Source of the DNA: Oscillospiraceae bacterium
GTDB lineage: Bacteria > Bacillota > Clostridia > Oscillospirales > Oscillospiraceae
Direction of reading: 5' to 3'
Length of the DNA: 64,000 nucleotides
Assembly (NCBI GenBank): GCA_017519975.1
Contig: JAFWRM010000053.1
Location: 27,176-91,175 of the forward strand
Shown here in pieces: positions 12,811 to 40,885 of the stretch. Under the pieces are notes generated by a model. It did no database searches. It was not told the origin of the DNA and saw only the letters and a list, made by a program, of their open reading frames with translations. The number at the start of each line of letters is the position of its first letter. The stretch's first letter is position 1. A program made the position numbers and the translations under genes.

Positions 12811-12816
12811 CATTTC

Positions 12817-26550: not shown

Positions 26551-26570
26551 CAAAATTCAGGATTGTTTTT

Positions 26571-27575: not shown

Positions 27576-27674
27576 TGTTTATCTCCTATTCCTCTCCGGA
27601 AGCCCGAAGAAAGCCAAAATGATCCCGGGGAGCGGCAGCGGAGCCGTGCTCCGCCGCCGGTCCCCAGGGAAAGA

Positions 27675-28466
27675 TCAGCGGATCTTATAGCTGCGGTACA
27701 TGATCGCCGCGTCGCCGTGAACGGCGCGCATGCAGTATTTTTCCCCGTCCGGAAGGCCGGACTCCACTTCGCTGCAGTCCGCCGTGCCGTCCAGGATCTC
27801 ATCGGCGCAGTCCGCGCAGTCCTGCAGGAAGGACCGAGGCATGACGCACTGGTCGTGCCCGCTGCAGAAGCCCTTCACGCCCTCCAGCGCCGTGAGCTTG
27901 TGCATGCTCCGGGCGTAGCACTCGACGGACACCGTCTGCGGTACCACCAGAAGCACATCCATGGCCTTGAGCATGCAGTCCCCGCTGAACAGCAGGCCGT
28001 TGACCCTGTCGTACAGGGTGACGTCTCCGGGCGTGTGGCCCGGCGTCTCGATCACTTCCAGCTTTCTGCCGCCCAGATCGAACACGTCTCCCTCCCGGAT
28101 GAATCTCCTCTCCGTGGGCTTTTCCTCCATCCGTTTCCGGATCGCGGCCAGTTCCTCCGGCGAGGCGACCATCCCGGTCATTTCCATGGCGATGTCCGCG
28201 CAGGGCGCCGCCGCCTCATGCATGTACACGCAGTCGAAGGCGTAGTTTCCGCCGGAGTGATCTCCGTGGCCGTGGGTGTTCACCACCCGGTAGGGAAGCT
28301 TCGTCAACTCCTCCACCTCGGCGCGCAGATCGCCGATCCCGAGGCCGGTGTCGATGAGCAGAGCGGACTCCGTGCCCTCCACCAGCCAGATGCAGCATTC
28401 AAAATCGATGCCCTTGATCAGCGTCACGCCTTCCGCGACCTTCGTCGCGGTACGTTTTTCAGCCAT
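27675..28466 (-). CDS. MBL-fold metallo-hydrolase (paralogue 2)
   Basis: NTHGHGDHSGGN (HxHxDH) and ETPGHTPGD motifs. 263 aa. Confidence 0.85.
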   Translation of the reverse strand: MAEKRTATKVAEGVTLIKGIDFECCIWLVEGTESALLIDTGLGIGDLRAEVEELTKLPYRVVNTHGHGDHSGGNYAFDCVYMHEAAAPCADIAMEMTGMVASPEELAAIRKRMEEKPTERRFIREGDVFDLGGRKLEVIETPGHTPGDVTLYDRVNGLLFSGDCMLKAMDVLLVVPQTVSVECYARSMHKLTALEGVKGFCSGHDQCVMPRSFLQDCADCADEILDGTADCSEVESGLPDGEKYCMRAVHGDAAIMYRSYKIR

Positions 28467-28477
28467 AACTATTCTCC

Positions 28478-29302
28478 TTATTTACGGTCGAAGATGACCT
28501 CGTCCTGATAGAGGATGGCCGTGGGCACGTTCTCTCCGTCCAGCTTCCAGCAGACCACCGGGGGCTGACCGGGAGGCGACGGCATTTCCGGATGGTACGG
28601 CTTTGCCGTTCCGTCGATGATGGACTCCGCCATGCGGATCAGTTCCGTCAGATATTCCTTGCCCAGAACACAGGCGTCGTGTCCGCCCAGGAACCCGTCG
28701 TAGGCGTCACCCAGCTTTTCCACCTTCCGGAGGGAGCGCAGGTAGCACTCCATGGAAACGGTGGAGAAGGTGACCCAGGGTAGGCTCCGAAGCATCCAGA
28801 TGTTGTGGGCGTTGCTGCCGATCATGTCCCCGCCGAACAGCACGCGGTGCGTACGGTCCAGCAGACAGATGCACCCGGGGGTGTGGCCCGGGGTCTCGAC
28901 GACCTCCAGCGTGACCCCGCCGAGGTCGAACACGTCGCCCTCATGGACTGGGATCCGCTTCGTATCGTACCGCGGCAGATCCTCGTATTCCACTTCCCTG
29001 GGGCAGGGCGTGGACTCCGTCTCATCCTGATCGGGATAGCAGGCGGGATGCATGTATACCTCGGGGAACTGGAAGTTGCCCGCGGAATGGTCGAAATGGC
29101 AGTGCGTGTTGATGGCGACGATCGGCTTGCCCGGCGCGAGTTTTTCCACCGCCCGATGCAGGTCTCCGGTGCCCATGCCGTTATCGATCAAGGCCACCTT
29201 CCGCTCGCCTTCCACCACGTAGATGCAGCATTCCTCGGAAAAGCCGTACAGTACCCAGATGCCGGGCATGATCTGCTTGCTTTGATATTCCTTCTGTTTC
29301 AC
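28478..29302 (-). CDS. MBL-fold metallo-hydrolase (paralogue 1)
   Basis: NTHCHFDHSAGN (HxHxDH) and ETPGHTPGC motifs. 274 aa, 11 nt from the next MBL gene. Confidence 0.85.
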   Translation of the reverse strand: MKQKEYQSKQIMPGIWVLYGFSEECCIYVVEGERKVALIDNGMGTGDLHRAVEKLAPGKPIVAINTHCHFDHSAGNFQFPEVYMHPACYPDQDETESTPCPREVEYEDLPRYDTKRIPVHEGDVFDLGGVTLEVVETPGHTPGCICLLDRTHRVLFGGDMIGSNAHNIWMLRSLPWVTFSTVSMECYLRSLRKVEKLGDAYDGFLGGHDACVLGKEYLTELIRMAESIIDGTAKPYHPEMPSPPGQPPVVCWKLDGENVPTAILYQDEVIFDRK

Positions 29303-29345
29303 GCGATACTCCTTCCCAGCGGACGCCGGTGCGCGCCGGCAGTCA

Positions 29346-30752
29346 TCAGAACCAGTTCATCGTCAGGTAGCCGATCACCGTAAAGATCACGATGCCCATG
29401 ACGATCTGGGGCGCGGCTTCCTTCAGGATCTCCTTGCTGTCGATCCAGCCGTCGGGCTCCTTGGCGTACAGCAGAGTCAGCAGCGGAGAGCAGGCGGGCA
29501 GCAGCATGCCGTAGGCAGCCGCCTTCATCATGATCGCCTGCAGGCCGAGGTGGTTCACGCCGATCGTGTGAGCGATGGTCATGGTCAGCACGCAGAACAC
29601 GAGGGACGTGATGGCGCTGTCCAGCAGGTTGGTGACAACGACGGCCAGGACGACCAGCAGCAGGACCGCAACGAACGGGCTGACACTGCCGAGGATGGGG
29701 GAGAACAGACCGACGAGCCAGTCGGACACGCCGTACTCCGGAGCGCTCATGGAGCCGCAGATGACCTGGATGGCGGCCAGCATGAGGATCAGCTGCCAGG
29801 ACAGGCCGCTCTTTTCGATCTCAGCGAAAGGCATGAACGGAGTGCCGTTCTTCTTATGGATAAGCAGGGCGACGATGACGGTCAGGAAGCCGAAGCCGAT
29901 GAGGCCCCACTGGCCTTCCAGCACGTTGCGCACGCCGCTGCCCTGAGGCAGGAACGCGGGGATGAAAACGAGAAGCACGAAGCACAGCAGCAGGATGCCG
30001 GCGATCTTCTGATCGACGGTGAAGGGGACCTTCTCCGCCGGCGCCTTGTATTCACGCAGCTTTTCCACGTCGGGCCGGAACACGAACCGGACCAGCAGAA
30101 CGTTGCATACCAGGAACACGGCCAGCATGATCAGGGAGGCGCCGGTGTAGGTCAGCGGCTTCCAGACGACGCTGGGATCCATGGCGGTGATCATTCCCAC
30201 GGCGGGAATGACGCCCGTGGACAGGTGAGAGCTCATCATGCCGACGGTGGCGGCGGAGCAGATGGCGATCAGAATGACCTTCGGGGTCTTGTCGCCCTTG
30301 TCATAGCCGCAGCTCTCGAAGATGCCGTAGGCCAGATCCCAGATGACCAGAACGACGGCCATGCCGGGCAGCACCAGGCTCAGGACCGCGGCCACGACCA
30401 TCAGCAGCGTGATGATGACCCAGGGCTTGCCGTTGGCAAATTTGGTGTTGACCATCTTCATGGCGATGGCCTTGGTGAATCCCGTGCTCATCATGATGCC
30501 GCAGATCATCAGCAGCGGCAGCAGCATGACGACGATGTAGCTTCCCAGGCCCTGCATGAAGGAAGCGGCGATGCCGTTTCCGCTGATGAAGCCCATGGCG
30601 ATGAAGCCGATCAGAGTGGGGATCACCATGTCGATGGTGCACCAGCCCCATACGCAGGACACCAGCAGCGCCAGGTTCTGCAGACCCTTGCGGGTCAGAG
30701 GACCGTCGGCCGCCAGAGGCAGATTCGAAATGATCAGATACAGGATGATCAT
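29346..30752 (-). CDS. Ion-transporter-superfamily permease (DASS/ArsB-NhaD/CitMHS-like anion carrier)
   Basis: 468 aa, more than 10 hydrophobic helices, internal two-fold pattern. No RBS precedes the ATG at 30752. The frame continues upstream through a TAG to an RBS-ATG at 30800 (see the next feature). Confidence 0.75.
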   Translation of the reverse strand: MIILYLIISNLPLAADGPLTRKGLQNLALLVSCVWGWCTIDMVIPTLIGFIAMGFISGNGIAASFMQGLGSYIVVMLLPLLMICGIMMSTGFTKAIAMKMVNTKFANGKPWVIITLLMVVAAVLSLVLPGMAVVLVIWDLAYGIFESCGYDKGDKTPKVILIAICSAATVGMMSSHLSTGVIPAVGMITAMDPSVVWKPLTYTGASLIMLAVFLVCNVLLVRFVFRPDVEKLREYKAPAEKVPFTVDQKIAGILLLCFVLLVFIPAFLPQGSGVRNVLEGQWGLIGFGFLTVIVALLIHKKNGTPFMPFAEIEKSGLSWQLILMLAAIQVICGSMSAPEYGVSDWLVGLFSPILGSVSPFVAVLLLVVLAVVVTNLLDSAITSLVFCVLTMTIAHTIGVNHLGLQAIMMKAAAYGMLLPACSPLLTLLYAKEPDGWIDSKEILKEAAPQIVMGIVIFTVIGYLTMNWF

Positions 30753-30773
30753 GATCAGGAAGCTGCCGTAAAA

Positions 30774-30812
30774 CTATGTGTTCTTACCGAGTTTTCGCAT
30801 GTTGTTCCTCCT
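30774..30812 (-). other. RBS + ATG + 7 codons + in-frame TAG immediately upstream of the permease ORF (recoding site, nonsense lesion or 8-codon leader uORF)
   Basis: Minus strand: AGGAGG (30812-30807), AACAAC, then ATG CGA AAA CTC GGT AAG AAC ACA TAG (TAG at 30776-30774), then TTT TAC GGC AGC TTC CTG ATC ATG (30752). All of it is in one frame. Confidence 0.6.
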
Positions 30813-30910
30813 AACGTGTTTCCTTTTCTCTCTTCTTGCGCGCCAGGAAGGCGCGCCCGGGTCCCCTCCTCCGACCGCCGCCGAAAGAGGCTCCTACAGG
30901 TAGTAATGTT

Positions 30911-30925
30911 ACAATAGCGCATTGT
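30911..30925. promoter_or_regulatory. 15-bp dyad in the divergent LysR/permease control region
   Basis: ACAAT-AGCGC-ATTGT overlaps the TTGACA/TTGACT -35-like hexamers of the minus-strand operon. It is a candidate LysR-type operator. Confidence 0.3.
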
Positions 30926-31064
30926 TCAAAGTCAATGTCAGAGCCCCGGCGCGGCTACCAATTATCCGTTTTGATTAACCAAAGTAAAACTTGATACCCT
31001 TGCGATGCCTATGATAAAATGAGAGCGGAACAATCGGAAACCCCACCGGAAGAGGAGTGATCCC

Positions 31065-31988
31065 GTGCTGTCCTTCGAGTATATCCGTTACTTTCTGGAA
31101 GCGTGCGACTGCGGCAGCATCCAGGCAGCTTCGAAAAAGCTGTTTCTCTCCGCCCAGGGGCTCGGTGCGGGGATCCAGCGCCTGGAAAACTCGCTTGGCC
31201 TGAAGCTGCTCGTGCGTTCCAAGTCCGGCGTGACGCCGACGCAGTTCGGGAAGGAGTTCTATCTGTACGCTTCCCGTCTGGCGGAGGACATGGATCAGCT
31301 GGAGCAGTTCTGCCAGGAATACCGGAAGAGCCAGGCGTCGGACACGCTGATCGGCGTGGTGGGAGACAACAAGTTCGCCAGTTCGATCACGCTGTGCGCC
31401 GAACTGTACAGCCGTGACCATCCGGATCGGCCGACGAACGTTTCCGCCATCTCCTTTGAAAGCTCCGAATCCCTGCAGGAAGCCCTCCGCGCGGGCGAAC
31501 TCGACGCCGCCTGGGTCTTTCACCGCGAGGAGCAGCCGGGGTTCATCTACCGTCGGATCGACGAATACAGCCCGCTGGTACTGATCTGCAGCGCAGACTG
31601 CAGCCTTGCGGGCCGAAGCTCGGTCTCCCTTCAGGATCTGGGCGCGCTGCGGTTCATACAGGCCGGGCGGGCGGATTCCATCACGGAGCTCGTCAGCCGG
31701 CTGTTCACGGAGGCCGGCGTACGTCAGGACATCTTCATGTATTCCACGGAAAACATCATGATCGGCAAGCTGATCGACGACGGCATCGCCGCCATCCTTC
31801 TCCGTGACTGCTACGCCCCGGCCGTTGTCAAGCACTGTACCCGCTGCGCCGTCGTCCCGCTGGAGCCGGAGGTACTCGTGGCAAGCTCCCTGATATCCAG
31901 AGCACCGCGGTCCCGCCATTCGGTCCAGAGCAAGTTTTTCGACTACATGGCCGACTACCTCCACCAGCATCTTTTCACCTACCGCTGA
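31065..31988 (+). CDS. LysR-family transcriptional regulator
   Basis: GTG start after GGAAGAGGAG. HTH GSIQAASKKLFLSAQGLGAGIQRLENSLGLKLL. 307 aa. Divergent from the permease operon and upstream of the GRE genes. Confidence 0.85.
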   Translation: MLSFEYIRYFLEACDCGSIQAASKKLFLSAQGLGAGIQRLENSLGLKLLVRSKSGVTPTQFGKEFYLYASRLAEDMDQLEQFCQEYRKSQASDTLIGVVGDNKFASSITLCAELYSRDHPDRPTNVSAISFESSESLQEALRAGELDAAWVFHREEQPGFIYRRIDEYSPLVLICSADCSLAGRSSVSLQDLGALRFIQAGRADSITELVSRLFTEAGVRQDIFMYSTENIMIGKLIDDGIAAILLRDCYAPAVVKHCTRCAVVPLEPEVLVASSLISRAPRSRHSVQSKFFDYMADYLHQHLFTYR

Positions 31989-32009
31989 ATCCCCATCCCC
32001 GCGAACCTG

Positions 32010-32040
32010 CCGCCGCCCGGAAGCCCGGGCGGCGGTTTTC
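32010..32040 (+). terminator. Rho-independent terminator after LysR
   Basis: CCGCCGCCCGG-AAGC-CCGGGCGGCGG followed by TTTTC. Confidence 0.7.
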
Positions 32041-32170
32041 TACCAACAACAAAAAGTTTTCTCTCCCACAACAAATATATGCTTTGTCATCGCCCCGTTT
32101 TCGTTTAGTATTGTTGATATAAAATGGTAGCACTGCATCGCGGCGCGTTTTCAGGAAGGAGTGAGCTGCC

Positions 32171-34594
32171 ATGTATGAACTGAAGCCCGTCACCGACCGG
32201 GTAAAGAAAATGCGGGAGAAGTACCGCACCACCAAGCCAGAGATCTGTACCGCCCGATACCGGCTGGTGACGGAATTCTATATGAACAATCCGCACCTGA
32301 CGGGCATCCTCAAGCGCGCGAAAAATCTGCAGAACATCTGTGAGAACATCCCCGTGAACATCTATGAGGATGAGGTGATCGTCGGAGAGCAGGGATTCAA
32401 GTACCGTTCCTGCGCTCTGTACCCGGAGACGGGCTTTGCCTGGATCAAATCCGAGATCGACACCCTGCCCACCCGGTATGTGGATCCCTACGACATTTCG
32501 GAAGAAAACAAGCGGTACATCCTGGACACCTATGATTTCTGGCTGACCCACACCCACGGGGCTCAGGCGGACGCCTATGTGCCGGACTTCCTGTACGCCC
32601 ACGAGGGCAACGGGGTGACGACGTTCCGTTCCAGGGGCGGGCACGCCGCTCCCGTCGGGCATTTCTGCGCCAACCACAACAAGGCCATCCACAAGGGCTT
32701 CGGCGCCATCAAGGCCGAAGCGGACCGGAAGGTGAAGGAGCTGGAGGCTCAGGGAATTCCGGGAACGACGATCGACAACTATAATTTCTACCGCGCCGTT
32801 TCCATCGTCTGCTCCGCCGTCATCACCCTGACGAAACGCTACGCGGCGGAAGCCCGCCGCCAGTGGGAGGCCTGCGCCGACCCCGGCCGCCGGAAAGAGC
32901 TGGCCATGATGGTCGATACGCTGGAGCGCGTGATCGAAAATCCGTGCGAGACCTTCTACGACGGCCTGCAGTGCCTGTTCATGTATCAGACCGTACTGGC
33001 GCTGGACGGCAACCTGCACGGGCTCTCCTTCGGGCGTGTGGATCAGTACCTGATCGACCTTTACGAGGCGGACGTCGCCGCCGGCCGCATCACACCGGAA
33101 TACGCCCAGGAGCTGCTGGACCTGTTCTACCTCAAGGTCGCGGAAATGAACAAGGTCGTGGGCCTGCTGCCCACGGAATCCGGCCCGGGCTACACCAGCG
33201 GACAGCTGATGACTTTGGGCGGGACGGACCGTGACGGGAACGACGCCACCAACGCCGTGACCTACATGATGCTGCAGACCGCCGGTCGTCTGGTCCTCCA
33301 CGATCCCCCGCAGGCGCTGCGGATCCACCCCGGCACCCCCGCGGAACTCTGGGAGGCGGCCATCCAGACCACGAAGATCTCCGGCGGCGTTCCCACCTTC
33401 GAAAACGACGCGGTGATCGTCCCCGCCCTGATGAAGCGCGGCCTGTCGGCCGAAAGCGCCCGCAACTACTGCCTGATCGGCTGCGTGGAGCCTGCCGGCT
33501 GCGGCGACGAATGGCCCGCCTGCGGAGGCCCCGGCGCAGAGAGCTACTTCAACCTGGCCAACGCCCTGTACCTGGCGATCAACGACGGCTTCAACCCCAT
33601 GCCCAGCCGCGGAGGCCCTCCGCGGAAGGAACGCGTCGGTCTTCCCACCGGGTACCTGAAGGACATGCCGGACATGGCCCACGTTTACGACGCCTTCCGC
33701 CGGCAGGTGGAGTTCTTTGTGAATCTTCACTGCGCCTGCGCCAACTCCTATGAGTACACGACCCGCGAGGCGATGCCGCTTCCCGTGGTATCGGCCACCA
33801 TCGACGGCTGCATGGAAAAGGGGCTGGACGTCATGTACGGCGGAGCGAAGTACAACTCCACCGGCATCGCCGGCATCGCGCTGGGCAACGCCGCGGACTC
33901 TCTGCAGATGATCGAGCATCTGGTGTTCGACCGGAAGATCTGTACCGCCGAGGAGCTGCAGGACGCCCTGGCGAAGAACTGGGAGGGGTATGAAGCGCTG
34001 CACGAATACGTGAAGACGAAGGCTCCCCATTACGGCAACAACGATCCGGAGGCGGACAAGTACGTCACACCCATCACGGAGATGTTCGCGAAGGCCGTTA
34101 CCTCCCATACGGGGCCGCGCGGCAACCGCTTTGCGCCCGGCATGTATCCGGTGACGACGAACATTCTGTTCGGCAAGCAGACGCCCGCTACTCCGGACGG
34201 CCGCTTCCGCGGCGAGCCTCTGGCGGACGGGATCTCCCCCGTGCAGGGGCAGGACAGGCACGGCCCCACTGCGCTGCTGTCTTCGATCCTTCACTTCAGC
34301 AACCAGAGCGACTATTCCAACGGCACCCTGCTGAACATGAAATTCGATCCCAACTCCGTGAAGACGGAGCAGGACATCGGCAAGCTGGCCACTCTGATGA
34401 AGACCTATTTCGCCAACGGCGGCATGGAGATGCAGATCAACGTGGTGGATACCCGGACCATGCGGCGGGCGCAGGAACATCCAGAGGAATACCGGGACCT
34501 GGTGGTGCGCATCGCGGGCTTTTCCGCCTACTTCGTGGAGCTGGCTCCCGAGGGCCAGCACGATCTCATCAGCCGCACGGAACTGAATCTCTGA
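32171..34594 (+). CDS. Glycyl radical enzyme with canonical eliminase/dehydratase-type motifs, substrate unknown (GRE2)
   Basis: 807 aa. GH motif (VGHFCANH, His164), GRVDQY, Cys loop LIGCVEPAG (Cys438 codon 33482-33484, Glu440) and glycyl motif VVRIAGFSAYF. GGAAGGAG RBS. Confidence 0.9.
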   Translation: MYELKPVTDRVKKMREKYRTTKPEICTARYRLVTEFYMNNPHLTGILKRAKNLQNICENIPVNIYEDEVIVGEQGFKYRSCALYPETGFAWIKSEIDTLPTRYVDPYDISEENKRYILDTYDFWLTHTHGAQADAYVPDFLYAHEGNGVTTFRSRGGHAAPVGHFCANHNKAIHKGFGAIKAEADRKVKELEAQGIPGTTIDNYNFYRAVSIVCSAVITLTKRYAAEARRQWEACADPGRRKELAMMVDTLERVIENPCETFYDGLQCLFMYQTVLALDGNLHGLSFGRVDQYLIDLYEADVAAGRITPEYAQELLDLFYLKVAEMNKVVGLLPTESGPGYTSGQLMTLGGTDRDGNDATNAVTYMMLQTAGRLVLHDPPQALRIHPGTPAELWEAAIQTTKISGGVPTFENDAVIVPALMKRGLSAESARNYCLIGCVEPAGCGDEWPACGGPGAESYFNLANALYLAINDGFNPMPSRGGPPRKERVGLPTGYLKDMPDMAHVYDAFRRQVEFFVNLHCACANSYEYTTREAMPLPVVSATIDGCMEKGLDVMYGGAKYNSTGIAGIALGNAADSLQMIEHLVFDRKICTAEELQDALAKNWEGYEALHEYVKTKAPHYGNNDPEADKYVTPITEMFAKAVTSHTGPRGNRFAPGMYPVTTNILFGKQTPATPDGRFRGEPLADGISPVQGQDRHGPTALLSSILHFSNQSDYSNGTLLNMKFDPNSVKTEQDIGKLATLMKTYFANGGMEMQINVVDTRTMRRAQEHPEEYRDLVVRIAGFSAYFVELAPEGQHDLISRTELNL

Positions 34595-34655
34595 TCCTTC
34601 CGGGGATCGATACCATACAGGCAACCATAAAACTACGAACAAACAGACAAGGAGC

Positions 34656-37082
34656 GTGGACCCATTGACGGACAGACTGAAGCGGATGTACAGTCAGATC
34701 AAAACCAATTACCAGCACATCGGCATCGAAAAATTCAAAATCATCACCAGGACCGAAGCGGAGTGCGCCGGCTATCCGGCCATCCTTCGCCGCGGCCAGA
34801 CCCTGAAGAACGTGCTGGAACAGTTCCCCATCTTCATCGGGGAGGACGAACTATTCGTCGGCAACCCGGCCAGCAAGCCCTGGGGTCTGGAGATCGAAGC
34901 CGGCCTGGGCAAATGGAGCCGGGAAGAGTGCGAATACCTCCGGGAGGACGGGTTCGATTTCAGTGAAGAGGACCAGGAGGAGATGCTGCGCATCAACGAG
35001 CAGTTCCATCCCTTCGGCATGTATCAGGGAGCGAATCTGATCATCGCGGAGAACGACCGCCTGGACGTGTTTGCCCGCAGCGGCATGATGCTGGCCCCCT
35101 GGAAGAAGGACAAGACTCTGGGCAACCGCGTGGGCGGCGGCGCCGCCTGCTCCGGTCTGGGCAACGGCCCCGGCTGGAACCTGCTGTGCATCGATTACGG
35201 ACTGGCACTGAACAAGGGCCTGGACGCCATGATCGCGGAATGCGATGAGGAGATCCAGAACAACCGCTATTTCGACAAGCGTTCCTTTGAGCGCGGCATC
35301 ACCCTGCAGGCCATGAAGCTGTCGCTTCAGGGACTGGTCAATTACGCAAAGCGCTTTTCCGTCCTCGCCGCGGAGATGGCCGAAGCGGAGTCCGATCCCC
35401 GCCGGAAAAAGGAGCTTGAGGAGATCTCCGCGATCTGCGCCAACGTGCCGGCGAAGCCCGCCCGCACCTTCCGTGAGGCCATGCAGTGCTTCTGGTTCAT
35501 GTTCATGATGGTGAACCCGGCGCCCACTCCCACCATCGGGCGCTTCGACCAGTACATGTACCCCTTCTACAAGGCGGACATCGAAGCCGGCCGCATCACG
35601 GACGACGAGGTGCTGGAACTGCTGGGCATGCTGCGCATCCGCTGCATGGAGATGAACCAGCAGTCCGGCCGCGAAATCCGCAAGAGGACCTCCGGCGGCG
35701 CCCGTTGGATGAACATGACCATCGGCGGCGTCAAGCCCGACGGCAGCGACGCCTGCAACGAGCTGACCCGTCTGATCCTTCAGGCGGTGCGCGACGTCCG
35801 CGCCCCGCATCACACCGTCACGCTGCGCGTGAGCGATTCCACCCCGGACGACGTGATGCTTCTCGCTCTGACCTGCCAGGCGGAGGGCTGCTCCATGCCC
35901 GCCTTCGTCGGCGACAAGTCCTACATTGATTACTTCACCCAGGTGCACAACCCGGACGACGGTCTCCCGATCGAGGTCGCCCGCGATTACTGCATGACCG
36001 GCTGCATCGACGGCAACGTACAGTACCGCACGCGCACGATGGGCATCACCATGTTCGTCTGCCCGCTGATGCTGGACATCTTCATGAACAACGGCTGGGA
36101 TAAGAACATTGAGGAGCAGGTGGGCCATCCCATCACCGGGGATCTGACGAAGTATGAGACCTTCGACCAGTTCATGGCGGACTTCCTGTCCGAATACCGT
36201 TATTTCGTGGAGACCGCGGCCGAAAAGCTGAACATCGAGAGCGCCGTTTTCAAGGAGCTGCTTCCCGATCCCTTCCGCGCCGCCTTCATGGCCAACGGCA
36301 TCAAGTCCGGTCTGGACTGCTACGCGCAGGAGTATCCGTTCGAAAGCAACCAGCTGCTCAATCCTGTGGGCATGGTGAACCTGGCCCAGTGCCTGTACGC
36401 GATCAAAAAGCTCTGCTTTGAGGAAAAGGTGTGCACGCTGCCCGAGATGAAGAAGGCCATGGACGCCAACTGGGAAGGCTATGAGGACCTGCACCGCCGC
36501 TGCCTGGAGCTGCCTCACTACGGCAACGGCAACGAGGACGCCGACGACATGGTGCGTCAGTGCTACCGCTGGTGGGTGGACATCGCCAACCAGACGCCGT
36601 CCTCTCTGGGCGGGCATTTCCGCTGCTCCGCCATCTCCGTTACCAGTCATCAGCCCGGCGGCGCTCTGTGCGGCGCGATGCCGGACGGCCGTTACAAAGG
36701 CGACATTCTGGCCGACGCCTGCGCTTCCCCCATGGCCGGCTGTGACCACGAGGGTCCGCTGGCGGTGTTTACCTCCGCCATGAAGATCCCGCAGGATGAG
36801 TTCCAGGCCATGTTGCTGAACATGAAGTTCTCCCCCAGCGCTCTTGCCACCGACCGCGACAAGATGAAGCTGGCCAGCGTCATCAAGGCGTACTTCGCCA
36901 ACGGCGGCAAGCACGTTCAGTTCATCGTGGAGGATCAGGAGACACTGAAAGACGCCAAGGAGCATCCGGAGAACCACAGCGATCTGATGGTGCGTGTGGC
37001 CGGATACAGCACGTATTTCGTACAGCTGACGCCCGGCCTGCAGGACGAGGTCATCGCCCGCACGGAGAACACCCATATCTGA
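34656..37082 (+). CDS. Divergent glycyl radical enzyme lacking Cys-x-Glu and Gly-His motifs, substrate unknown (GRE3)
   Basis: 808 aa. Glycyl motif MVRVAGYSTYF and GRFDQY are present. The Cys loop is MTGCIDGN (Cys450 codon 36003-36005, Asp452). The GH segment is replaced by GNGPGWNLLCIDYG. The GTG at 34656 is 1 nt after AAGGAG, so the in-frame TTG at 34665 is an alternative start. Confidence 0.9.
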   Translation: MDPLTDRLKRMYSQIKTNYQHIGIEKFKIITRTEAECAGYPAILRRGQTLKNVLEQFPIFIGEDELFVGNPASKPWGLEIEAGLGKWSREECEYLREDGFDFSEEDQEEMLRINEQFHPFGMYQGANLIIAENDRLDVFARSGMMLAPWKKDKTLGNRVGGGAACSGLGNGPGWNLLCIDYGLALNKGLDAMIAECDEEIQNNRYFDKRSFERGITLQAMKLSLQGLVNYAKRFSVLAAEMAEAESDPRRKKELEEISAICANVPAKPARTFREAMQCFWFMFMMVNPAPTPTIGRFDQYMYPFYKADIEAGRITDDEVLELLGMLRIRCMEMNQQSGREIRKRTSGGARWMNMTIGGVKPDGSDACNELTRLILQAVRDVRAPHHTVTLRVSDSTPDDVMLLALTCQAEGCSMPAFVGDKSYIDYFTQVHNPDDGLPIEVARDYCMTGCIDGNVQYRTRTMGITMFVCPLMLDIFMNNGWDKNIEEQVGHPITGDLTKYETFDQFMADFLSEYRYFVETAAEKLNIESAVFKELLPDPFRAAFMANGIKSGLDCYAQEYPFESNQLLNPVGMVNLAQCLYAIKKLCFEEKVCTLPEMKKAMDANWEGYEDLHRRCLELPHYGNGNEDADDMVRQCYRWWVDIANQTPSSLGGHFRCSAISVTSHQPGGALCGAMPDGRYKGDILADACASPMAGCDHEGPLAVFTSAMKIPQDEFQAMLLNMKFSPSALATDRDKMKLASVIKAYFANGGKHVQFIVEDQETLKDAKEHPENHSDLMVRVAGYSTYFVQLTPGLQDEVIARTENTHI

Positions 37083-37107
37083 TCATCCCCAAAGGAGTTG
37101 ATTTGTC

Positions 37108-38046
37108 TTGACCGACCGATACATGGAGCTGACGGCGCCGATCTTCAACGTGCAGACGTACTCCATCCACGACGGCCCCGGCATCCGCGTGACAGTTTTT
37201 GAAAAGGGCTGTCCGCTGCGGTGCCGGTGGTGCGCCAATCCGGAATCCAATCTGGCGCGCCCTCAGCTGATGACCTACGCCGCAAAATGTACGGCGTGCG
37301 GCCGCTGCGTAGCCGTATGTCCGCAGAAGGCCGTTTCCATCGGAGAGCTGCACGACAAGCCCTGTGCCCTCACGGATCGGGCTCTGTGCGTGGAGTGCGG
37401 CGCCTGCGTGGACGTCTGTCCCTGCGAAGCCCGCGAGATCGTCGGACAGGAAAAGACCGTACGCGAGGTATTGGACCAGGTTCTCAGGGACAAGCTGTTC
37501 ATCGACGCCTCCGGGGGCGGCATGACCGTCAGCGGAGGAGAATGCCTCGCCCATCCCGACTTTACCGAGGCCCTGCTGTACGCCGCGAAGGAGCATGGGC
37601 TCCATACGGCCATCGAATCCTCTTCCTTCGCCCCGGAACCCATTTTCGACCAGGTGCTGCGCTATGTGGATCTGGCTCTGCTGGACATCAAGCACATGGA
37701 CTCCAATACCCATCGGGAACTCACGGGAGTGCCGAACGAGCAGATCCTCAGCAACATCCGGCACGCGGTGCGGGATCTGAAGAAGGAGGTCACCGTCCGT
37801 GTCCCCACGATTCCCGGATACAATGATTCCGAGGAAAACATCCGGGCGACGGCCCGATTCGTGAAGGAGGAGCTGGGGCCCGGGGTCGGCGTACATCTGC
37901 TTCCCTACCATCGCCTCGGGGAATCGAAGAACGAAAGCCTCGGCAAGGCCATGGATCTTTCCGTGACCGTCCCGTCCGACGAGCACATGCAGGAGCTGAA
38001 GGCGCTTGTGGAATCCTACGGCCTTTACTGCCAGATCGGCGGCTGA
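37108..38046 (+). CDS. Glycyl-radical enzyme activating enzyme (radical SAM, two extra ferredoxin-type clusters)
   Basis: CPLRCRWCANPES (CX3CX2C) plus CTACGRCVAVCP and CVECGACVDVCP. TTG start 10 nt after AAAGGAG, 25 nt after GRE3. Confidence 0.9.
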   Translation: MTDRYMELTAPIFNVQTYSIHDGPGIRVTVFEKGCPLRCRWCANPESNLARPQLMTYAAKCTACGRCVAVCPQKAVSIGELHDKPCALTDRALCVECGACVDVCPCEAREIVGQEKTVREVLDQVLRDKLFIDASGGGMTVSGGECLAHPDFTEALLYAAKEHGLHTAIESSSFAPEPIFDQVLRYVDLALLDIKHMDSNTHRELTGVPNEQILSNIRHAVRDLKKEVTVRVPTIPGYNDSEENIRATARFVKEELGPGVGVHLLPYHRLGESKNESLGKAMDLSVTVPSDEHMQELKALVESYGLYCQIGG

Positions 38047-38083
38047 ACGGCAAGCATCCGCATATTACATTTTTCTCCCATAA

Positions 38084-38141
38084 ACGGCGGAGGCCGGTGC
38101 GCGACAGAAAACGTTCGCGTACCGGCCTCCGCCGTTTTTTC
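38084..38141 (+). terminator. Strong rho-independent terminator of the GRE operon
   Basis: ACGGCGGAGGCCGGT (38084-38098) pairs with ACCGGCCTCCGCCGT (38121-38135) and is followed by TTTTTT. A second small hairpin (CCGTCCC-GGAA-GGGGACGG) serves the convergent sdaA. Confidence 0.8.
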
Positions 38142-38184
38142 CCCGCCGTCCCGGAAGGGGACGGGCTTCCCTTATCCTCAGTTC

Positions 38185-39417
38185 TCAGAAGATCCTGTCA
38201 AAATTGTCCGGTCCGAGCTGCTCGTAAACGGAATGGATCTGAGCCAGTCCGCCGTGGGCGGTCTCCCGGTATTTTTCATCCATGTCGATCCCCGTCTCGT
38301 ACATCGTCGCGATGACCTCGTCCAGCGAGATCCGCCGGGTATCGGACAGGAAACGGGAGATATTGACCGCGTTGACGACACGCATGGCTCCGATGGCGTT
38401 CCTTTCGATGCACGGGATCTGAACCAGTCCCCTGACCGGGTCACAGGTCAGGCCAAGCTGGTGTTCCATCGCGATCTCCGCGGCGTACTCGATCTCCGCC
38501 AGAGAGAGGCCGTACAGCTGTGCCAGCCCGGCGGCAGCCATGGAGCAGGCGCTGCCGATCTCCGCCTGACAACCGCATTCCGCGCCGGATACGCTGGCGT
38601 TCGTCCGTATGATGTTCCCGATCAGCCCCGCGATCGCCAAAGCGTCAACGATCTCTTCATCGGAAAAGCCCCGGTCATGCTTCATGTAATAGAAAACGGC
38701 AGGGATGATCCCGCAGCTGCCGCAGGTGGGCGCCGTGACCACGATCTGTTCGTCCGCGTTCTCTTCGCTGACGGCAAAGGCGTAGGCCGCCAGCTTCCGG
38801 TCGAACGTGACGTCCGACGGCTCGTTATGGCAGCGCATGGTGTACAGGTGCTTTGCCTTCCGCTCCAGATTCAGGCCCCCGGGCAGGATCCCTTCCGCCG
38901 CCAGTCCCCTGTGCACCGCCTCCTGCATGGCGTTCCATACGGTGAGAAGATACTCCCGGATATCCGGCTGTTCCTTCGAATAGACATATTCCAGGAGAGT
39001 CATGCCGGACTGCCGGCAGGCTTCCCTGAACTGATGAAAGCTTCTTTCGGCATACACATCGGCGTCGTCGGGGGAGGTCTCTCCCTCGATGCGGATGGAG
39101 CCCCCGCCTACGCTCATGATCCGCAGAGCGCCGATCTCGGCCCCGGCCCGTCTGGCGCGGAACCACATGGTGTTCGGATGAGGCAGGTCCTTTTCCTTTT
39201 TGTCCGATACGATCTTCGCCGAAGGAATGACCGTACGGATCGCCTTTCCGGTGCCGTGCCCCTCTCCGGTAAACGCGAGGGAGCCGTACAGTGTGACCTC
39301 GTATTCGTCCGCCTCCGGATAACGCGACGCAAACAGACGCGCCGCGTTGTAAGGGCCGACGGTATGGGAACTGGACGGCCCGTTTCCTATCTTGTATACG
39401 CTTCTTATGCTTCTCAA
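38185..39417 (-). CDS. sdaA: L-serine ammonia-lyase, Fe-S dependent, single-chain (beta-alpha fused)
   Basis: YKIGNGPSSSHTVGP N-terminal motif and CGCQAEIGSAC cluster-region motif. TTG at 39417 lies 9 nt after GGAGG. The longer track ORF (to 39582) runs through the tRNA gene and was rejected. Confidence 0.8.
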   Translation of the reverse strand: MRSIRSVYKIGNGPSSSHTVGPYNAARLFASRYPEADEYEVTLYGSLAFTGEGHGTGKAIRTVIPSAKIVSDKKEKDLPHPNTMWFRARRAGAEIGALRIMSVGGGSIRIEGETSPDDADVYAERSFHQFREACRQSGMTLLEYVYSKEQPDIREYLLTVWNAMQEAVHRGLAAEGILPGGLNLERKAKHLYTMRCHNEPSDVTFDRKLAAYAFAVSEENADEQIVVTAPTCGSCGIIPAVFYYMKHDRGFSDEEIVDALAIAGLIGNIIRTNASVSGAECGCQAEIGSACSMAAAGLAQLYGLSLAEIEYAAEIAMEHQLGLTCDPVRGLVQIPCIERNAIGAMRVVNAVNISRFLSDTRRISLDEVIATMYETGIDMDEKYRETAHGGLAQIHSVYEQLGPDNFDRIF

Positions 39418-39529
39418 AGATCGACACCTCCACAGCAGCCGGCTCCCGTTCCCGCCCGTCCACCGGGCAGCGGGATAAGAAAAAGGGCTGTGCACCGCGG
39501 ATCGGAGATCCACTGTGCAACAGCCCCTT

Positions 39530-39606
39530 TGGTACGCCCGATGCGATTCGAACGCACGACCTTCAGAGTCGGAGTCTGACACTCTATCCAGCTGAGCTAC
39601 GGGCGC
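39530..39606 (-). tRNA. tRNA-Arg (anticodon CCG), CCA encoded
   Basis: The minus strand reads GCGCCCGTAGCTCAGCTGGATAGAGTGTCAGACTCCGACTCTGAAGGTCGTGCGTTCGAATCGCATCGGGCGTACCA. It folds into a cloverleaf by hand: 7-bp acceptor (G1-U72), D arm, anticodon stem TCAGA/TCTGA with loop CTCCGAC, and T arm GTGCG-TTCGAAT-CGCAT. Confidence 0.85.
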
Positions 39607-39674
39607 ATACCTTTTTGCCGCCCGATTATTATATCAAATCGGCTCCGCCGTGTAAAGAGCAAAATCCGTACTTT

Positions 39675-40289
39675 TCAGCGGGGGATGGCCGACTCCAGCG
39701 CTCTGCGCCCCAGCTCCTCGGCCTTTTCTTCCGGAATGAAGAACACGATGGCCGCCAGAATGATGGAGACGCGCTCCTCCGGAGCCGTTTTGATCATTAC
39801 GTCCTGATCCGTAACGGAAAACATCTCCGTCCGCACCTTCTCCGCCGAGGCCTTGATATGGCCGATAACGCCGCCCATCTCATTGACGGCGGCGGCAAAC
39901 TGCTTCAGTCCCTCTCCCAGTCCGAGGCGGATCGCGTCGTAGTCGCCGGTCAGCTCCAGGCTGCCGGATACCACCTTCGCGTCGTCGTGCAGTTTCACCT
40001 GGGTATAGACCACGCCGGGCACTTTCTGCTCATGGAGCTGCTTGTGCTCATGTTCGTGGTCGTGACCGCAGCCGCAGTCATCGCCGTGCTCGTGATGATG
40101 GTGATGGTCGTGATGGTGTTCATCGCAGCCGCCGGTTCCGTCATGCTCATGATGATGGTGATGGTGCTCATGGCAGCCGCAGTGTTCCCCGTGTTCATGT
40201 TCGTGATGGTGGCCGTGCGTATGCTCATGCTCGTGATTCCCGCAGCCGCAGGGCTCCGGCCGCTGTTCCAGGATCTCTTCCTCACTCAT
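39675..40289 (-). CDS. His/Cys-rich metal-binding protein with CobW_C-like C-terminal domain (detached C-terminal half of a COG0523 protein)
   Basis: About 70 N-terminal residues are made of H/E runs punctuated by CGCG/CGC/GGC/CGCG. These are followed by about 120 aa resembling the CobW C-terminal domain. The ATG at 40289 overlaps the upstream TGA (ATGA), and GGAAGGGAG lies 10 nt upstream. Confidence 0.6.
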   Translation of the reverse strand: MSEEEILEQRPEPCGCGNHEHEHTHGHHHEHEHGEHCGCHEHHHHHHEHDGTGGCDEHHHDHHHHHEHGDDCGCGHDHEHEHKQLHEQKVPGVVYTQVKLHDDAKVVSGSLELTGDYDAIRLGLGEGLKQFAAAVNEMGGVIGHIKASAEKVRTEMFSVTDQDVMIKTAPEERVSIILAAIVFFIPEEKAEELGRRALESAIPR

Positions 40290-40885
40290 TCTCCCAGCAC
40301 TCCCTTCCACACGGTCTCTTCCACCGGCTTCAGGCCGGAAATGTGATAGATGTTCGCTTTCGGCTCGAAGGAAAGAATGTCCTTATCCACGGCCTGCACG
40401 GTGGCTTCCTCCACCAGATCGATCTTGTTGACCAGCACGGCGTCCGATCCCTGGATCTGCCCCATGAGCAGATTCTCCATGGGGATGCGCAGCCGGCGCC
40501 AGCGGGACGCGTCTACCAGAACGCCGATGCGGGATTCGATCCCCAGGGCGATCTGAAGGTTCTCCTGGATGCGGATCGGGTAGGCCAGGCCCGTCGTCTC
40601 CACGATCAGCCATTCGGGGTCGTATTCCTTGCGTATCCGGCCGGCCGCGGTCACCATCTCTCCGGACACACTGCAGCAGGCGCAGCCGGCGAACAGGTTG
40701 TCCACCTGGAAGCCTCCGCCCCGCAGGAACGCGTCGTCGATGCCCACCTCACCGATCTCGTTTTCAAGGATCATCACCTTGATCTCCTTGTCCGACCTGC
40801 TGTTTTCCACGATGTAGCGGGCCAGCTGCATCAGACAGGTCGTCTTTCCCGATCCGAGGAATCCTCCGAAGATCAGTACTTTCAT
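40286..40885 (-). CDS. COG0523 (CobW/ZigA/YjiA-type) G3E GTPase domain, stand-alone
   Basis: Walker A GGFLGSGKTT, canonical metal motif GCACC, and the NKIDL specificity motif. It is 199 aa and ends where fused family members continue into a His-rich linker. Confidence 0.8.
   Translation of the reverse strand: MKVLIFGGFLGSGKTTCLMQLARYIVENSRSDKEIKVMILENEIGEVGIDDAFLRGGGFQVDNLFAGCACCSVSGEMVTAAGRIRKEYDPEWLIVETTGLAYPIRIQENLQIALGIESRIGVLVDASRWRRLRIPMENLLMGQIQGSDAVLVNKIDLVEEATVQAVDKDILSFEPKANIYHISGLKPVEETVWKGVLGE

Follow-up and report, generated by a model that had tools for sequence, protein, structure and literature searches.

The window, which is the whole stretch of 64,000 nt of DNA that was analysed, comes from a rumen bacterium. 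A gene for a LysR-type transcriptional regulator is followed on the plus strand by genes for two glycyl radical enzymes (GREs), named GRE2 and GRE3, and for one GRE-activating enzyme, and is faced on the minus strand by genes for an anion permease, two MBL-fold hydrolases and a URO-D-fold protein. The features of the locus are as follows.

26511-26549, minus strand: hairpin after the URO-D gene, perfect 18-bp stem with 3-nt loop, 22 nt past the URO-D stop codon
26571-27575, minus strand: URO-D-fold gene (UROD_b), 334 aa, Pfam URO-D (PF01208) 49.2 bits (cut-off 23.9)
27675-28466, minus strand: MBL_b, 263 aa, Lactamase_B 72.6 bits
28478-29302, minus strand: MBL_a, 274 aa, Lactamase_B 92.2 bits
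29346-30752, minus strand: CitMHS/DASS-type (ion-transporter-superfamily) anion permease, open frame of 468 aa, CitMHS 45.9 bits, DASS model 31 bits
30753-31064, no strand: divergent control region with dyads and promoter-like sites on both strands
30911-30925, control region: 15-bp dyad ACAATAGCGCATTGT
30920-30937, control region: overlapping dyad CATTG-N8-CAATG
31065-31988, plus strand: LysR-type transcriptional regulator, 307 aa, HTH_1 and LysR_substrate
32009-32036, plus strand: intrinsic terminator after the LysR gene, 12-bp GC stem and UUUU, −29.9 kcal/mol, z = −5.1
32084-32111, plus strand: promoter-like site of the GRE2-GRE3-activase operon, TTGTCA-16-TAGTAT in an AT-rich stretch
32171-34594, plus strand: GRE2, 807 aa, PFL-like PF02901 578 bits, Gly_radical PF01228 107 bits
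34665-37082 (from 34656 if the start is GTG), plus strand: GRE3, PF02901 479 bits, PF01228 103 bits
37108-38046, plus strand: radical SAM enzyme for GRE activation, 312 aa, TIGR02494 350 bits (cut-off 174)
38082-38137, plus strand: strong intrinsic terminator after the activase gene, 23-bp stem and U6, −49.4 kcal/mol, z = −8.8

The eight genes, the 15-bp dyad and all three terminator hairpins lie where an earlier note on this DNA had placed them, apart from two start codons that were corrected. GRE2, GRE3 and the activase gene form one terminator-bounded unit, which is divergent from a second terminator-bounded unit with gaps of 43, 11 and 99 nt between its genes. The perfect 18-bp hairpin said to close the latter is seen directly in the sequence; its fold reaches −33.3 kcal/mol (z = −7.65), and 0 of 200 shuffles were equally stable. 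The gap between GRE3 and the activase gene is 25 nt as claimed, whereas the 61 nt given for the gap between GRE2 and GRE3 hold only with GTG 34656 as start codon and become 70 nt with TTG 34665. The GTG sits 1 nt past an AGGAG at 34650-34654 and would result in a protein of 808 aa. TTG 34665 is the better-fitting start, because the resulting length of 805 aa agrees with the gene calls on identical contigs. The promoter-like site upstream of GRE2 is a consensus match alone, with 9 of 12 positions matching.

The second correction concerns the permease gene. The control region of 265 nt described before was counted from ATG 30800, but the open frame begins only at ATG 30752, and the region between the two genes thus measures 312 nt. 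ATG 30800, the ancestral start, is preceded by a perfect GGAGG ribosome-binding site, but a TAG (30774-30776) at codon 9 cuts its frame off; the permease has lost its native start. The dyads at 30911-30937 are only partly kept in the close relative L018, whose GRE2 and GRE3 are 97% identical and in which one half is mutated, and different dyads are present in other loci; due to this degeneration little weight is given to the 15-bp dyad. No Rfam riboswitch or leader was found in 22000-40000, and the LysR protein reached no NCBIfam equivalog cut-off.

Inspection of the Pfam gene lists confirmed that the activase is the only one in the 64-kb window, and that the window is devoid of genes for microcompartment shells, aldehyde or alcohol dehydrogenases, P5C reductase, sulfite reductase and GRE small subunits, as had been noted. 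The window has three URO-D paralogues, and within about 4 kb beyond the activase gene there are genes for RACo, CobW, DUF2284 and a protein rich in His. A gene for an OYE-type reductase flanks GRE1.

The system had been proposed to be uncharacterised, and this view was borne out: neither GRE reaches any NCBIfam equivalog cut-off, the nearest relatives of solved structure share 34-35% identity, and both enzymes fall outside the characterised groups (CutC, HypD, HpfG, HpsG, IAD, HPAD, PFL and PflD). Their close database relatives are all unnamed, and in the literature no paper was found that joins a GRE to MBL or URO-D genes.

GRE2 carries the glycine motif RIAGF and the Cys loop GCVE (C-V-E) and keeps His164, His281, Cys433, Glu435, Tyr640 and Gly763 of glycerol dehydratase (GD); the His164-equivalent His is also kept in GRE1. 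The protein is 35.3% identical to GD 1r8w, scores 500 bits with its best PDB match and 549 bits with its best specific NCBIfam model (HpfG, cut-off 1000), misses the PFL2-3 subfamily cut-off (597 vs 678) and is located in the C-V-E/His group of an NJ tree without support values. The exchange of GD Ser282 for Gly, Asp447 for Ala and Tyr339 for Gly implies a different, probably larger substrate. GRE2 relatives at approximately 60% identity are found in ordinary eliminase settings, e.g. aldehyde:ferredoxin oxidoreductase-activase-GRE-Fe-ADH. One relative lies near a URO-D gene in Sporobacter termitidis, a specialist on methoxylated aromatics. Of the GRE3 loci that were fetched, L018 alone has a GRE2 relative as well, and the others have none; three further contigs seem to carry relatives of both. 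GRE2 is of the C-x-E/His 1,2-eliminase (dehydratase) type and is an addition specific to this lineage.

By sequence, GRE3 shows all the hallmarks of an active GRE, with the Cys loop TGCIDGN and the glycine motif RVAGY. C-x-D was present in 118 of 118 readable Cys loops among the 120 nearest relatives, down to 46% identity, the remaining two being fragments with an unreadable loop. The clade comprises about 16 clusters at 50% identity, shares a conserved [RK]-W at 338-339 and is monophyletic next to the group of arylacetate decarboxylase (AAD) in the NJ tree, which has no support values. The C-x-E Cys loop is the mark of GRE 1,2-eliminases/isomerases (GD, PD, HpfG, HypD, CutC, IslA, HpsG, HplG and YbiW) (PMC13450708), and this motif is absent from GRE3 (C-I-D). 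Equivalents of GD His164, His281 and Tyr640 are also missing from the GRE3 alignment, the column aligned with His164 being occupied by Leu (local sequence N-L-L-C). In dehydratases, GD His164 protonates the leaving hydroxyl. The clade of GRE3 is set apart by its C-x-D Cys loop and by the missing dehydratase histidine.

The closest characterised identity of GRE3 is 33.8% to AAD 7e7l. Its best NCBIfam equivalog is choline TMA-lyase CutC (TIGR04394) with 425 bits against a cut-off of 1050; IAD reaches 409 (vs 1100) and HPAD 357 (vs 1150), and even the PFL2-3 subfamily cut-off is missed (432 vs 678). Its scores lean more than those of GRE2 towards the IAD, HPAD and AAD models. The raw PDB ranking is led by the CutC-type 9f3w (411 bits) before AAD (400 bits), which counts against an AAD-like reading. 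GRE3 could alternatively be a 1,2-eliminase (C-O, C-N or C-S lyase) with Asp for Glu, working in series with GRE2 on a polyhydroxy or hetero-substituted acid, for example in the stepwise dehydroxylation of quinate/shikimate that the hydrolases would free from esters of chlorogenic type, while the carbonyls would be removed by reductases encoded elsewhere. The replacement of Glu by Asp is a conservative swap of the catalytic base, and CutC and HpsG are among the top PDB/NCBIfam scores of GRE3. Nevertheless this alternative is considered unlikely, since GRE3 is without the three GD equivalents, groups with AAD and not with the C-V-E/His eliminases, and no publication was found that connects GREs with quinate. 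The two successive radical C-X cleavages of the earlier note gained no support, GRE3 lacking the eliminase signature and grouping with a decarboxylase.

GRE3, the activase, the MBL pair, the URO-D-fold gene and an importer travel together across phyla. Relatives of GRE3 (68-97% identity) are located beside an activase gene in Oscillospiraceae, Lachnospiraceae, Eubacterium and Coriobacteriaceae MAGs and in unassigned metagenome contigs. Hosts are thus known from Bacillota and from Coriobacteriaceae, where GRE3 is still 80% identical; further relatives occur in anaerobic Acidobacteriota MAGs. The activase gene adjoins GRE3 relatives in L005, L006, L008, L009, L014, L018, L026 and L028. Most relatives adjoin both MBL paralogues, and often a URO-D/MtaA-fold gene, a LysR gene and an anion importer. 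The MBL pair lies beside GRE3 relatives of 80-97% identity in L005, L006/L021, L008, L013, L018, L026/L027 and L034 and beside the 68% relative in L028, which amounts to 8 distinct loci besides the window (L006/L021 and L005/L008 each counted as two). URO-D genes flank GRE3 relatives in six loci (L007, L009, L013, L026, L028 and L034), and LysR genes adjoin them in L007, L010, L012, L013, L018, L026, L028 and L034, the divergent LysR layout being present in the window, L018, L026 and L028. Gene order is shuffled from divergent operons to the single operon GRE3-activase-URO-D-MBL-MBL-DppBCDF (ABC transporter), and where the MBL pair shares an operon with GRE3 the gaps are 12-30 nt. The importer is interchangeable between CitMHS, MatC-like and Dpp-type ABC systems; CitMHS or MatC-like permeases were found in the window, L010, L012, L026 and L034, and orthologues of the permease in L018 (97%), L034 (71%) and L026 (50%).

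Co-conservation of the two halves of the locus, on which the earlier proposal depended, was therefore found for GRE3: the leftward MBL and URO-D genes recur beside it in shuffled orders, but GRE2 accompanies GRE3 only in L018 among the fetched loci. The unit is rather GRE3 plus accessories than two GREs plus accessories; GRE3 is the conserved centre of the module, and GRE2 is not on a par with it.

The same neighbourhoods bear on the eliminase alternative. Clusters of two to four GREs recur (L034, L029, L030, L007, L009, L013 and L015), as multi-step chemistry predicts. Fe-S aldo-keto reductase genes adjoin GRE3 in L005, L008 and L015, which would be easier to reconcile with an eliminase that forms a carbonyl than with a decarboxylase, and the OYE-type reductase beside GRE1 points in the same direction. 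Hydrolase genes near GRE3 relatives are a further argument for it: tannase, carboxylesterase and lactonase genes surround a 52% relative, and in L016 and L017 of Acidobacteriota, where the MBL pair is missing, GRE3 is followed by a carboxylesterase gene. On the other hand, GRE2 is not conserved alongside GRE3, and no GRE3 locus was found to have microcompartment genes or the aldehyde-handling genes (aldehyde/alcohol dehydrogenase, AOR) of the kind that GRE2 relatives have.

The activase contains the motif CPLRCRWC (CX3CX2C) and two ferredoxin-like Cys clusters. MBL_a and MBL_b are paralogues (40.6% identity), and both keep a complete di-metal site: the HxHxDH, His, Asp and His ligands (H67, H69, D71, H72, H140, D159 and H208) are invariant in 16 of 16 MBL_a/MBL_b proteins. 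YcbL glyoxalase II 2xf4 is the best PDB match of both (E = 3e-12 for MBL_b), and specific models remain below cut-off (GloB 51/36 vs 200.8, B3 34/30 vs 240, AiiA 30 vs 375). The two orthologous groups, which share an extra conserved N-terminal E-C motif, are paired at every locus that has them. In the fetched loci, MBL genes above 43% identity occur only beside GRE3, and more distant MBLs are singletons. That the leftward genes are unrelated to the GREs, and adjacent by chance or shared regulation as for example a detoxifying hydrolase/permease set, could be argued from the match of the MBLs to generic models alone (glyoxalase II, beta-lactamase core) and from the incomplete module in L009, L010, L016 and L017. 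We consider this very improbable in view of the recurrence of both paralogues beside GRE3 in at least 8 loci, in varied order and strand and across phyla, and of close MBL orthologues not being found apart from GRE3 in the fetched loci.

UROD_b stays far below the MtaA/CmuA model TIGR01463 (40 bits, cut-off 235) and gave no PDB match by sequence. Its AF2 model (pLDDT 96.5) has MtaA 4ay7 as best Foldseek match (TM 0.67, 18% identity), compared to a TM of about 0.6 and 12-16% identity to URO-D. His221 and Cys223 are at the zinc site of MtaA, of which the third ligand, a Cys, is not conserved. Relatives of UROD_b (70-84% identity) are located directly upstream of GRE3 in L026, L007 and L009. Proteins of this fold could be methyltransferases of corrinoid-dependent O-demethylases in the catabolism of methoxylated aromatics, with the GREs processing the demethylated phenolic acids. 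The three URO-D paralogues of the window and the RACo, CobW, DUF2284 and His-rich protein genes near the activase would fit this, as would the fold nearest to MtaA, the GRE2 relative close to a URO-D gene in Sporobacter termitidis and the GRE3 relatives in anaerobic Acidobacteriota MAGs. The explanation is nonetheless quite improbable: a gene for a corrinoid-binding protein is present neither at any GRE3 locus nor in the window, the third zinc ligand and the MtaA/CmuA cut-off are both missed, the MBL-MBL-GRE3-activase operons of L005 and L008 are without URO-D, and the RACo cluster is kept with GRE3 only in the close relative L018.

With moderate confidence, the locus is instead read as a catabolic module under LysR control that acts on an organic anion taken up from outside, with GRE3, the activase, MBL_a/MBL_b, usually a URO-D/MtaA-fold protein and an importer as its core. 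LysR would sense the substrate or an intermediate and turn on both operons, and the permease, whose place is taken elsewhere by a Dpp-type ABC system or a permease like MatC, would import a carboxylate; the CitMHS or MatC-like permeases at several loci and the order permease-activase-GRE-permease-GRE in Geosporobacter fit such a substrate. The two MBLs may then free the acid by hydrolysing an ester, lactone, amide or thioester. The hydrolytic unmasking suggested before is plausible, and the carboxylesterase genes next to GRE3 in L016 and L017 and the tannase, carboxylesterase and lactonase genes around the 52% relative are in line with it. After a single activation by the radical SAM activase, the GRE3 Cys would abstract a hydrogen atom, Asp could serve as acid/base and the conserved Arg/Lys-Trp could hold the carboxylate, followed by cleavage of the molecule. 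For this cleavage, a decarboxylase-type C-C reaction as in AAD, the nearest characterised relative, is put forward tentatively; C-X elimination with Asp in place of Glu is doubtful, and a different reaction altogether is to be regarded as equally doubtful. GRE2, as a dehydratase-type eliminase sharing promoter and activase, probably takes a related or side substrate, and the URO-D-fold protein may contribute an accessory decarboxylation or methyl/alkyl transfer. Our best guess is hence an imported carboxylate that would be unmasked by the MBLs and cut by GRE3, with decarboxylation slightly favoured. Against it count the lack of the MBL pair in the well-covered L009 and L010 and in the 69-71% Acidobacteriota loci, the lack of URO-D in L005, L008 and L006, the poor conservation of the dyad in L018, the loss of the native start of the permease, the Fe-S aldo-keto reductases beside GRE3, the identity of only 34% between GRE3 and AAD, and the fact that the known GRE decarboxylases act on arylacetates and are not known to need hydrolase partners.

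The module is a good lead for enzyme discovery. Somewhat speculatively, the C-x-D enzymes might be a new functional class of GREs with a reaction type new to the superfamily, dependent on a dedicated metallo-hydrolase pair. The module would then supply the missing genes for an orphan conversion by which plant or host acids are turned over in quantity in rumen and gut. If true, examples could be the formation of 4-methylcatechol or other alkylphenols, or the dehydroxylation of cyclic polyol acids.

In comparison with known systems, GRE3 shares with AAD 7E7L and with HPAD, IAD and PAD the PFL-like barrel, the RVxG[YF] motif and the catalytic Cys, and with the GRE decarboxylases a dedicated radical SAM activase with two extra Fe-S clusters. 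Like AAD, its nearest characterised neighbour in the NJ tree, it has no small subunit; a gene for the Fe-S small subunit of HPAD type is absent from the window and the related loci. We know of no GRE decarboxylase locus with MBL or URO-D partners. In the Cys loop, AAD has C-V-L, and HPAD and IAD both have C-x-E (PMC13450708), in contrast to C-I-D in GRE3. CutC has the same overall fold as GRE3 but differs in C-V-E and Asp216, where GRE3 has C-I-D and, in the alignment, Leu. Of the sulfonate-binding Arg/Gln/Arg triad of C-S lyases (IslA, IseG and HpsG) only the Gln position (GD-164) could be located, and neither GRE2 nor GRE3 has Gln there. GRE2 shares the C-V-E loop and the His164/His281/Tyr640 equivalents with B12-independent glycerol dehydratase 1R8W, propanediol dehydratase and the DHPS dehydratase HpfG, although all cut-offs are missed by about half. 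The MBL pair resembles YcbL 2XF4/GloB at an E value of only about 1e-12 and differs from glyoxalase II-type enzymes in forming a conserved paralogue pair; fold and the full HxHxDH/His/Asp/His metal site are the same. While the module has no corrinoid protein as partner of an MtaA, UROD_b has in common with the methylcobalamin:CoM methyltransferase MtaA 4AY7 and uroporphyrinogen decarboxylase the URO-D (beta/alpha)8 fold, and it carries His-x-Cys at the zinc position of MtaA.

The eight genes of the LysR divergon and the families claimed for them in the earlier note were recovered in the six-frame ORF list and in scans with Pfam and NCBIfam models. Moreover, the Pfam gene lists agreed with the claims that the window holds a single activase (AE) of glycyl radical enzymes (GREs) and lacks the accessory genes that go with the known GRE pathways. 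The activase, a radical SAM enzyme, carries a CX3CX2C motif and two ferredoxin-like clusters. The gene order GRE2-GRE3-activase was found as described, but the gap between GRE2 and GRE3 is probably not 61 nt; it measures 70 nt from the more likely GRE3 start, TTG 34665, which lies 10 nt past AGGAG and gives the 805-aa protein called on identical contigs. Contigs identical over the window region were present in several ruminant gut metagenome assemblies, and the nearest named genome was a sheep rumen Oscillospiraceae MAG (L018), whose GRE2 and GRE3 are each 97% identical to those of the window. Both the module region and its flanks have a G+C content of about 0.6, and the genes around the module are ordinary chromosomal ones (among them those for aconitase, IleRS, MutL and DivIVA). 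Between the L-serine dehydratase gene and a His-rich/CobW cluster a tRNA gene was located, which is overlapped by a spurious ORF:

39530-39606, minus strand, tRNA-Arg (CCG)
38185-39582, spurious long ORF overlapping this tRNA gene

The three hairpins were confirmed, all of them far above shuffled sequence in stability, and so was the 15-bp dyad of the control region, where short dyads were located by a custom scan:

3′ of the activase gene, hairpin with 23-bp stem and U6, -49.4 kcal/mol, z = -8.8
26511-26549, 3′ of the URO-D gene, hairpin with perfect 18-bp stem, z = -7.7
3′ of the LysR gene, hairpin with 12-bp stem, z = -5.1
30911-30925, 15-bp dyad ACAATAGCGCATTGT

An Rfam E-value scan of positions 22000-40000 revealed no riboswitch or leader, the matches being one tRNA and two hairpins. 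The 265 nt given for the control region are counted from ATG 30800, which has a perfect ribosome-binding site (GGAGG), but in this strain the frame from there into the permease is stopped at codon 9 by a TAG (30774-30776, minus strand) and opens again at ATG 30752. L018 and the metagenome locus L034 carry AAG (Lys) at this codon, and the in-frame TAG recurs in L001-L003, metagenome contigs that are independent of one another; either a nonsense mutation has become fixed and translation re-initiates at Met17, or the codon might be read through. TAG closes only one of 51 genes in the window (alanine racemase, 45984-47048), the others ending in TGA (35/51) or TAA (15/51), and as a trinucleotide TAG shows no depletion. 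The rare TAG ends and the in-frame TAG of the permease raise the question whether this organism avoids TAG or has recoded it.

For the analysis of conservation, 185,579 species genomes were scanned with GRE3, followed by tblastn of the window proteins and inspection of Pfam-annotated contigs. GRE3 relatives of 80-97% identity were found in MAGs labelled Oscillospiraceae, Lachnospiraceae, Eubacterium, Clostridia, Bacillota and Coriobacteriaceae, and relatives of 68-72% identity in MAGs from Acidobacteriota and in metagenome contigs without assignment. The proposed co-conservation of the leftward operon with the GREs was seen for GRE3, at which the pair of metallo-beta-lactamase-fold hydrolases (MBL_a and MBL_b), a URO-D-fold gene and an importer recur, but not for GRE2. 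In most loci the activase lies 3′ of GRE3, and eight GRE3 loci include a LysR gene. The MBL pair adjoins GRE3 in L005, L006/L021, L008, L013, L018, L026/L027, L028 and L034; wherever MBL paralogues were found by GRE3 both were present, each in its own orthologous group. A URO-D-fold gene adjoins GRE3 in L007, L009, L013, L026, L028 and L034; since those of L013, L028 and L034 are just 27-31% identical to UROD_b, the URO-D-fold protein of the window operon, this association holds at the subfamily level and is not one of strict orthology. An importer is encoded throughout but its type varies among the loci, and gene order and strand vary widely:

CitMHS importer: window, L018, L026, L034
MatC-like importer: L010, L012, L034
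Dpp-type ABC importer: L028, L009
L026: MBL-MBL-permease-LysR facing URO-D-GRE3-AE
L028: LysR facing GRE3-AE-URO-D-MBL-MBL-ABC
L005 and L008: 1424-aa BcrAD/DUF2229 protein, then MBL-MBL-GRE3-AE
L034: four C-x-D GREs around permease-MBL-MBL-GRE3-URO-D

When metagenomes were scanned with the MBL alignment, one close locus emerged, L034, with its MBLs again beside GRE3, the other 79 loci holding distant, unrelated singleton MBLs (≤40% identity) of little informative value. The shuffled gene order, the spread across phyla and the exclusive pairing of the MBLs with GRE3 argue for functional coupling of GRE3 and its partners and not for inherited synteny. GRE3 loci without MBLs were L009 and L010, as well as the Acidobacteriota loci L016 and L017, in which a carboxylesterase gene lies directly 3′ of GRE3; in L015, also from Acidobacteriota, an Fe-S aldo-keto reductase is encoded 5′ of GRE3. 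In three loci, large genes for proteins resembling 2-hydroxyacyl-CoA dehydratases or their activases (BcrAD_BadFG/DUF2229 or HGD-D) head or face the GRE3 operon, a possible sign that the pathway also involves CoA esters or ketyl radicals:

L005, 2665-6936
L008, 4058-8332
L010, 6949-9461

MBL_a and MBL_b keep all seven metal ligands and matched generic models only, with the glyoxalase II YcbL as best PDB match (E about 1e-12). By sequence, UROD_b had no match in the PDB; its confident AlphaFold model (pLDDT 96.5) was closest to MtaA (TM 0.67, 18% identity), followed by uroporphyrinogen decarboxylases. His221 is fully conserved and Cys223 almost so, with no conserved third zinc ligand, and no GRE3 locus contains a corrinoid protein gene. 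A coenzyme M or thiol substrate, as the MtaA-like fold might suggest, was dropped for want of support. Two further gene groups with URO-D paralogues were observed in the window:

23574-26351, minus strand, two MoaF-like paralogues (228 and 282 aa) and UROD_a, just past the 18-bp hairpin
39675-44405, minus strand, His-rich protein (204 aa), CobW, third URO-D paralogue, 60-aa Cys-rich protein, DUF2284 protein, RACo-type corrinoid activator

UROD_a is 33% identical to UROD_b, and a separate promoter-like site precedes the MoaF-like/UROD_a genes, which do not accompany GRE3 in other loci. No corrinoid-binding protein gene was found in the window.

The view of the two-GRE tandem as a unit was not sustained; the system is centred on GRE3 and the MBL pair, and GRE2 is an add-on to this module. 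Among the fetched loci, GRE2 relatives co-occur with GRE3 only in L018, although three further contigs may carry both, judging by contigs of equal length. In L018 (5066-9950) an extra GRE2 paralogue (69% identical) lies between LysR and GRE2, so dehydratase-type GREs are gained and lost at this position. The GRE2 family is large at about 60% identity and occurs in classic eliminase contexts, such as aldehyde:ferredoxin oxidoreductase-AE-GRE-Fe-ADH in Eubacteriaceae ES3, or, in Sporobacter termitidis, a neighbourhood of LysR, AE, dehydrogenase and URO-D genes. The best PDB matches of GRE2 were glycerol dehydratase (GD; 500 bits, 35.3% identity), then 9rco ("glycyl radical protein"), CutC-type enzyme and propanediol dehydratase. 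GRE2 keeps His164, His281, Cys433, Glu435, Tyr640 and Gly763 of glycerol dehydratase, whereas Ser282, Asp447 and Tyr339 are replaced by small residues; this pattern marks it as an eliminase of the dehydratase type that acts on another substrate, probably a bulkier one. GRE1 (10291-12744; 817 aa, Cys loop G-C-Q-E) is 39.5% identical to GRE2 and has no activase of its own. Its neighbourhood (10291-23008) encodes an FGE-sulfatase-like protein, an OYE/2,4-dienoyl-reductase-like flavoprotein, a Dpp/Opp ABC transporter and a second LysR protein. As a 47% identical GRE1 relative directly adjoins the GRE3 module in Coriobacteriaceae L013, GRE1 may form one metabolic island with it and use the same activase. 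The GRE1-side Dpp genes were rejected as a link to the module, since their 41-61% identity to those of L028 and L009 is in the generic range for ATPases and permeases.

Neither GRE2 nor GRE3 fell into an already characterised isofunctional cluster: the NCBIfam equivalog cut-offs were all missed by about half, even the broad PFL2-3 subfamily cut-off was not reached, and in a collection of 5.8 billion proteins all close relatives bore generic labels or none. GRE3 matched best in the PDB to a CutC-type enzyme (411 bits), arylacetate decarboxylase (AAD) 7e7l (400 bits, 33.8% identity) and then glycerol dehydratase; compared with GRE2, its model scores are shifted towards IAD, HPAD and AAD. Its Cys loop reads T-G-C-I-D-G-N, and G-C-[ILVN]-D was present in 118/118 readable loops of its 120 nearest relatives, down to 46% identity, the remaining two being fragments. 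When 1.84 billion representatives at 50% identity were searched, a motif scan gave C-x-D in 11 of the first 16 listed. In a neighbour-joining tree (midpoint-rooted, without support values), 16 sequences with C-x-D and Leu at GD-164 form one clade, beyond which the Cys loops are heterogeneous; AAD sits in the group next to this clade, and a large C-x-E group apart from them comprises GRE1, GRE2, glycerol dehydratase and CutC. Neither equivalents of His164 and His281 nor Tyr640 occur in GRE3 and its clade, which have a conserved Arg/Lys-Trp at GD-338/339. More distant C-x-D enzymes are encoded next to carboxylate carriers alone (Geosporobacter, permease-AE-GRE-permease-GRE), together with hydrolases and a BKACE/cyclase set (L029), or surrounded by tannase, carboxylesterase, lactonase and sugar-acid genes (L031). 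Several GREs of this type were observed together in L034 (loops GCVDGY, GCLDIE, GCIDGN and GCVDGY), where no activase was found within the 16.8 kb fetched:

L034, 1405-15727, all on the same strand, four C-x-D GREs, two carboxylate permeases, MBL pair, URO-D gene

From the observed gene content, motifs, boundaries and co-occurrence we infer a model in which LysR would control two divergent, terminator-bounded operons, the importer would take up an organic anion, and the MBL pair would hydrolyse a masking bond, the carboxylesterase taking its place in some lineages. The radical step on the acid would then fall to GRE3, once activated by the radical SAM enzyme encoded beside it. Its tree position, the lost dehydratase residues, the carboxylate carriers and the lack of aldehyde-handling genes tentatively favour a decarboxylase-type C-C cleavage, a reading held at somewhat less than even confidence. 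Elimination with Asp as base, for which the conservative Glu-to-Asp change, the multi-GRE clusters and the nearby aldo-keto reductases speak, is a little less likely, and a reaction of some other kind equally so. A role of the GREs as sulfonate lyases was set aside owing to the absence of sulfite reductase. Candidate substrates of GRE3, which are no more than leads, include arylacetates, e.g. 3,4-dihydroxyphenylacetate (PMC8780962), the formation of 4-methylcatechol in the rumen (PMC8780962) being an ecological lead only; further candidates are phenolic acids in conjugated or esterified form, di- and tricarboxylates from plants, and quinate or shikimate.

The GRE3-MBL system is real, conserved and uncharacterised, within a known superfamily. 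GREs carry out chemically hard steps in anaerobic metabolism, several of which shape the health of the host, for instance those that yield trimethylamine, p-cresol, skatole and hydrogen sulfide. The literature searched, including the topics of phloroglucinol and of quinate, shikimate and chlorogenic acid, contained nothing describing a GRE system with metallo-beta-lactamase or uroporphyrinogen decarboxylase partners. With its distinct motif and unusual conserved partners the GRE3 module is a well-defined target; it could account for an orphan conversion of feed or host compounds in ruminants and, if its reaction is new, would widen the catalytic range of the superfamily. About twenty GRE functions are characterised and entire clades lack an assignment (PMC13450708), so the existence of such a system will not surprise specialists. 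One of these clades is here delimited by a signature (C-x-D, no dehydratase His, conserved Arg/Lys-Trp), and it gains a defined, conserved set of partner genes and an ecological address in rumen, hindgut, digesters and anoxic soils, which together form a basis for choosing constructs and candidate substrates. The C-x-D motif is not mentioned in the June 2026 review of the superfamily, according to which C-x-E is kept by all eliminases and isomerases (PMC13450708); in its C-x-D loop GRE3 differs from every known GRE of these two types.
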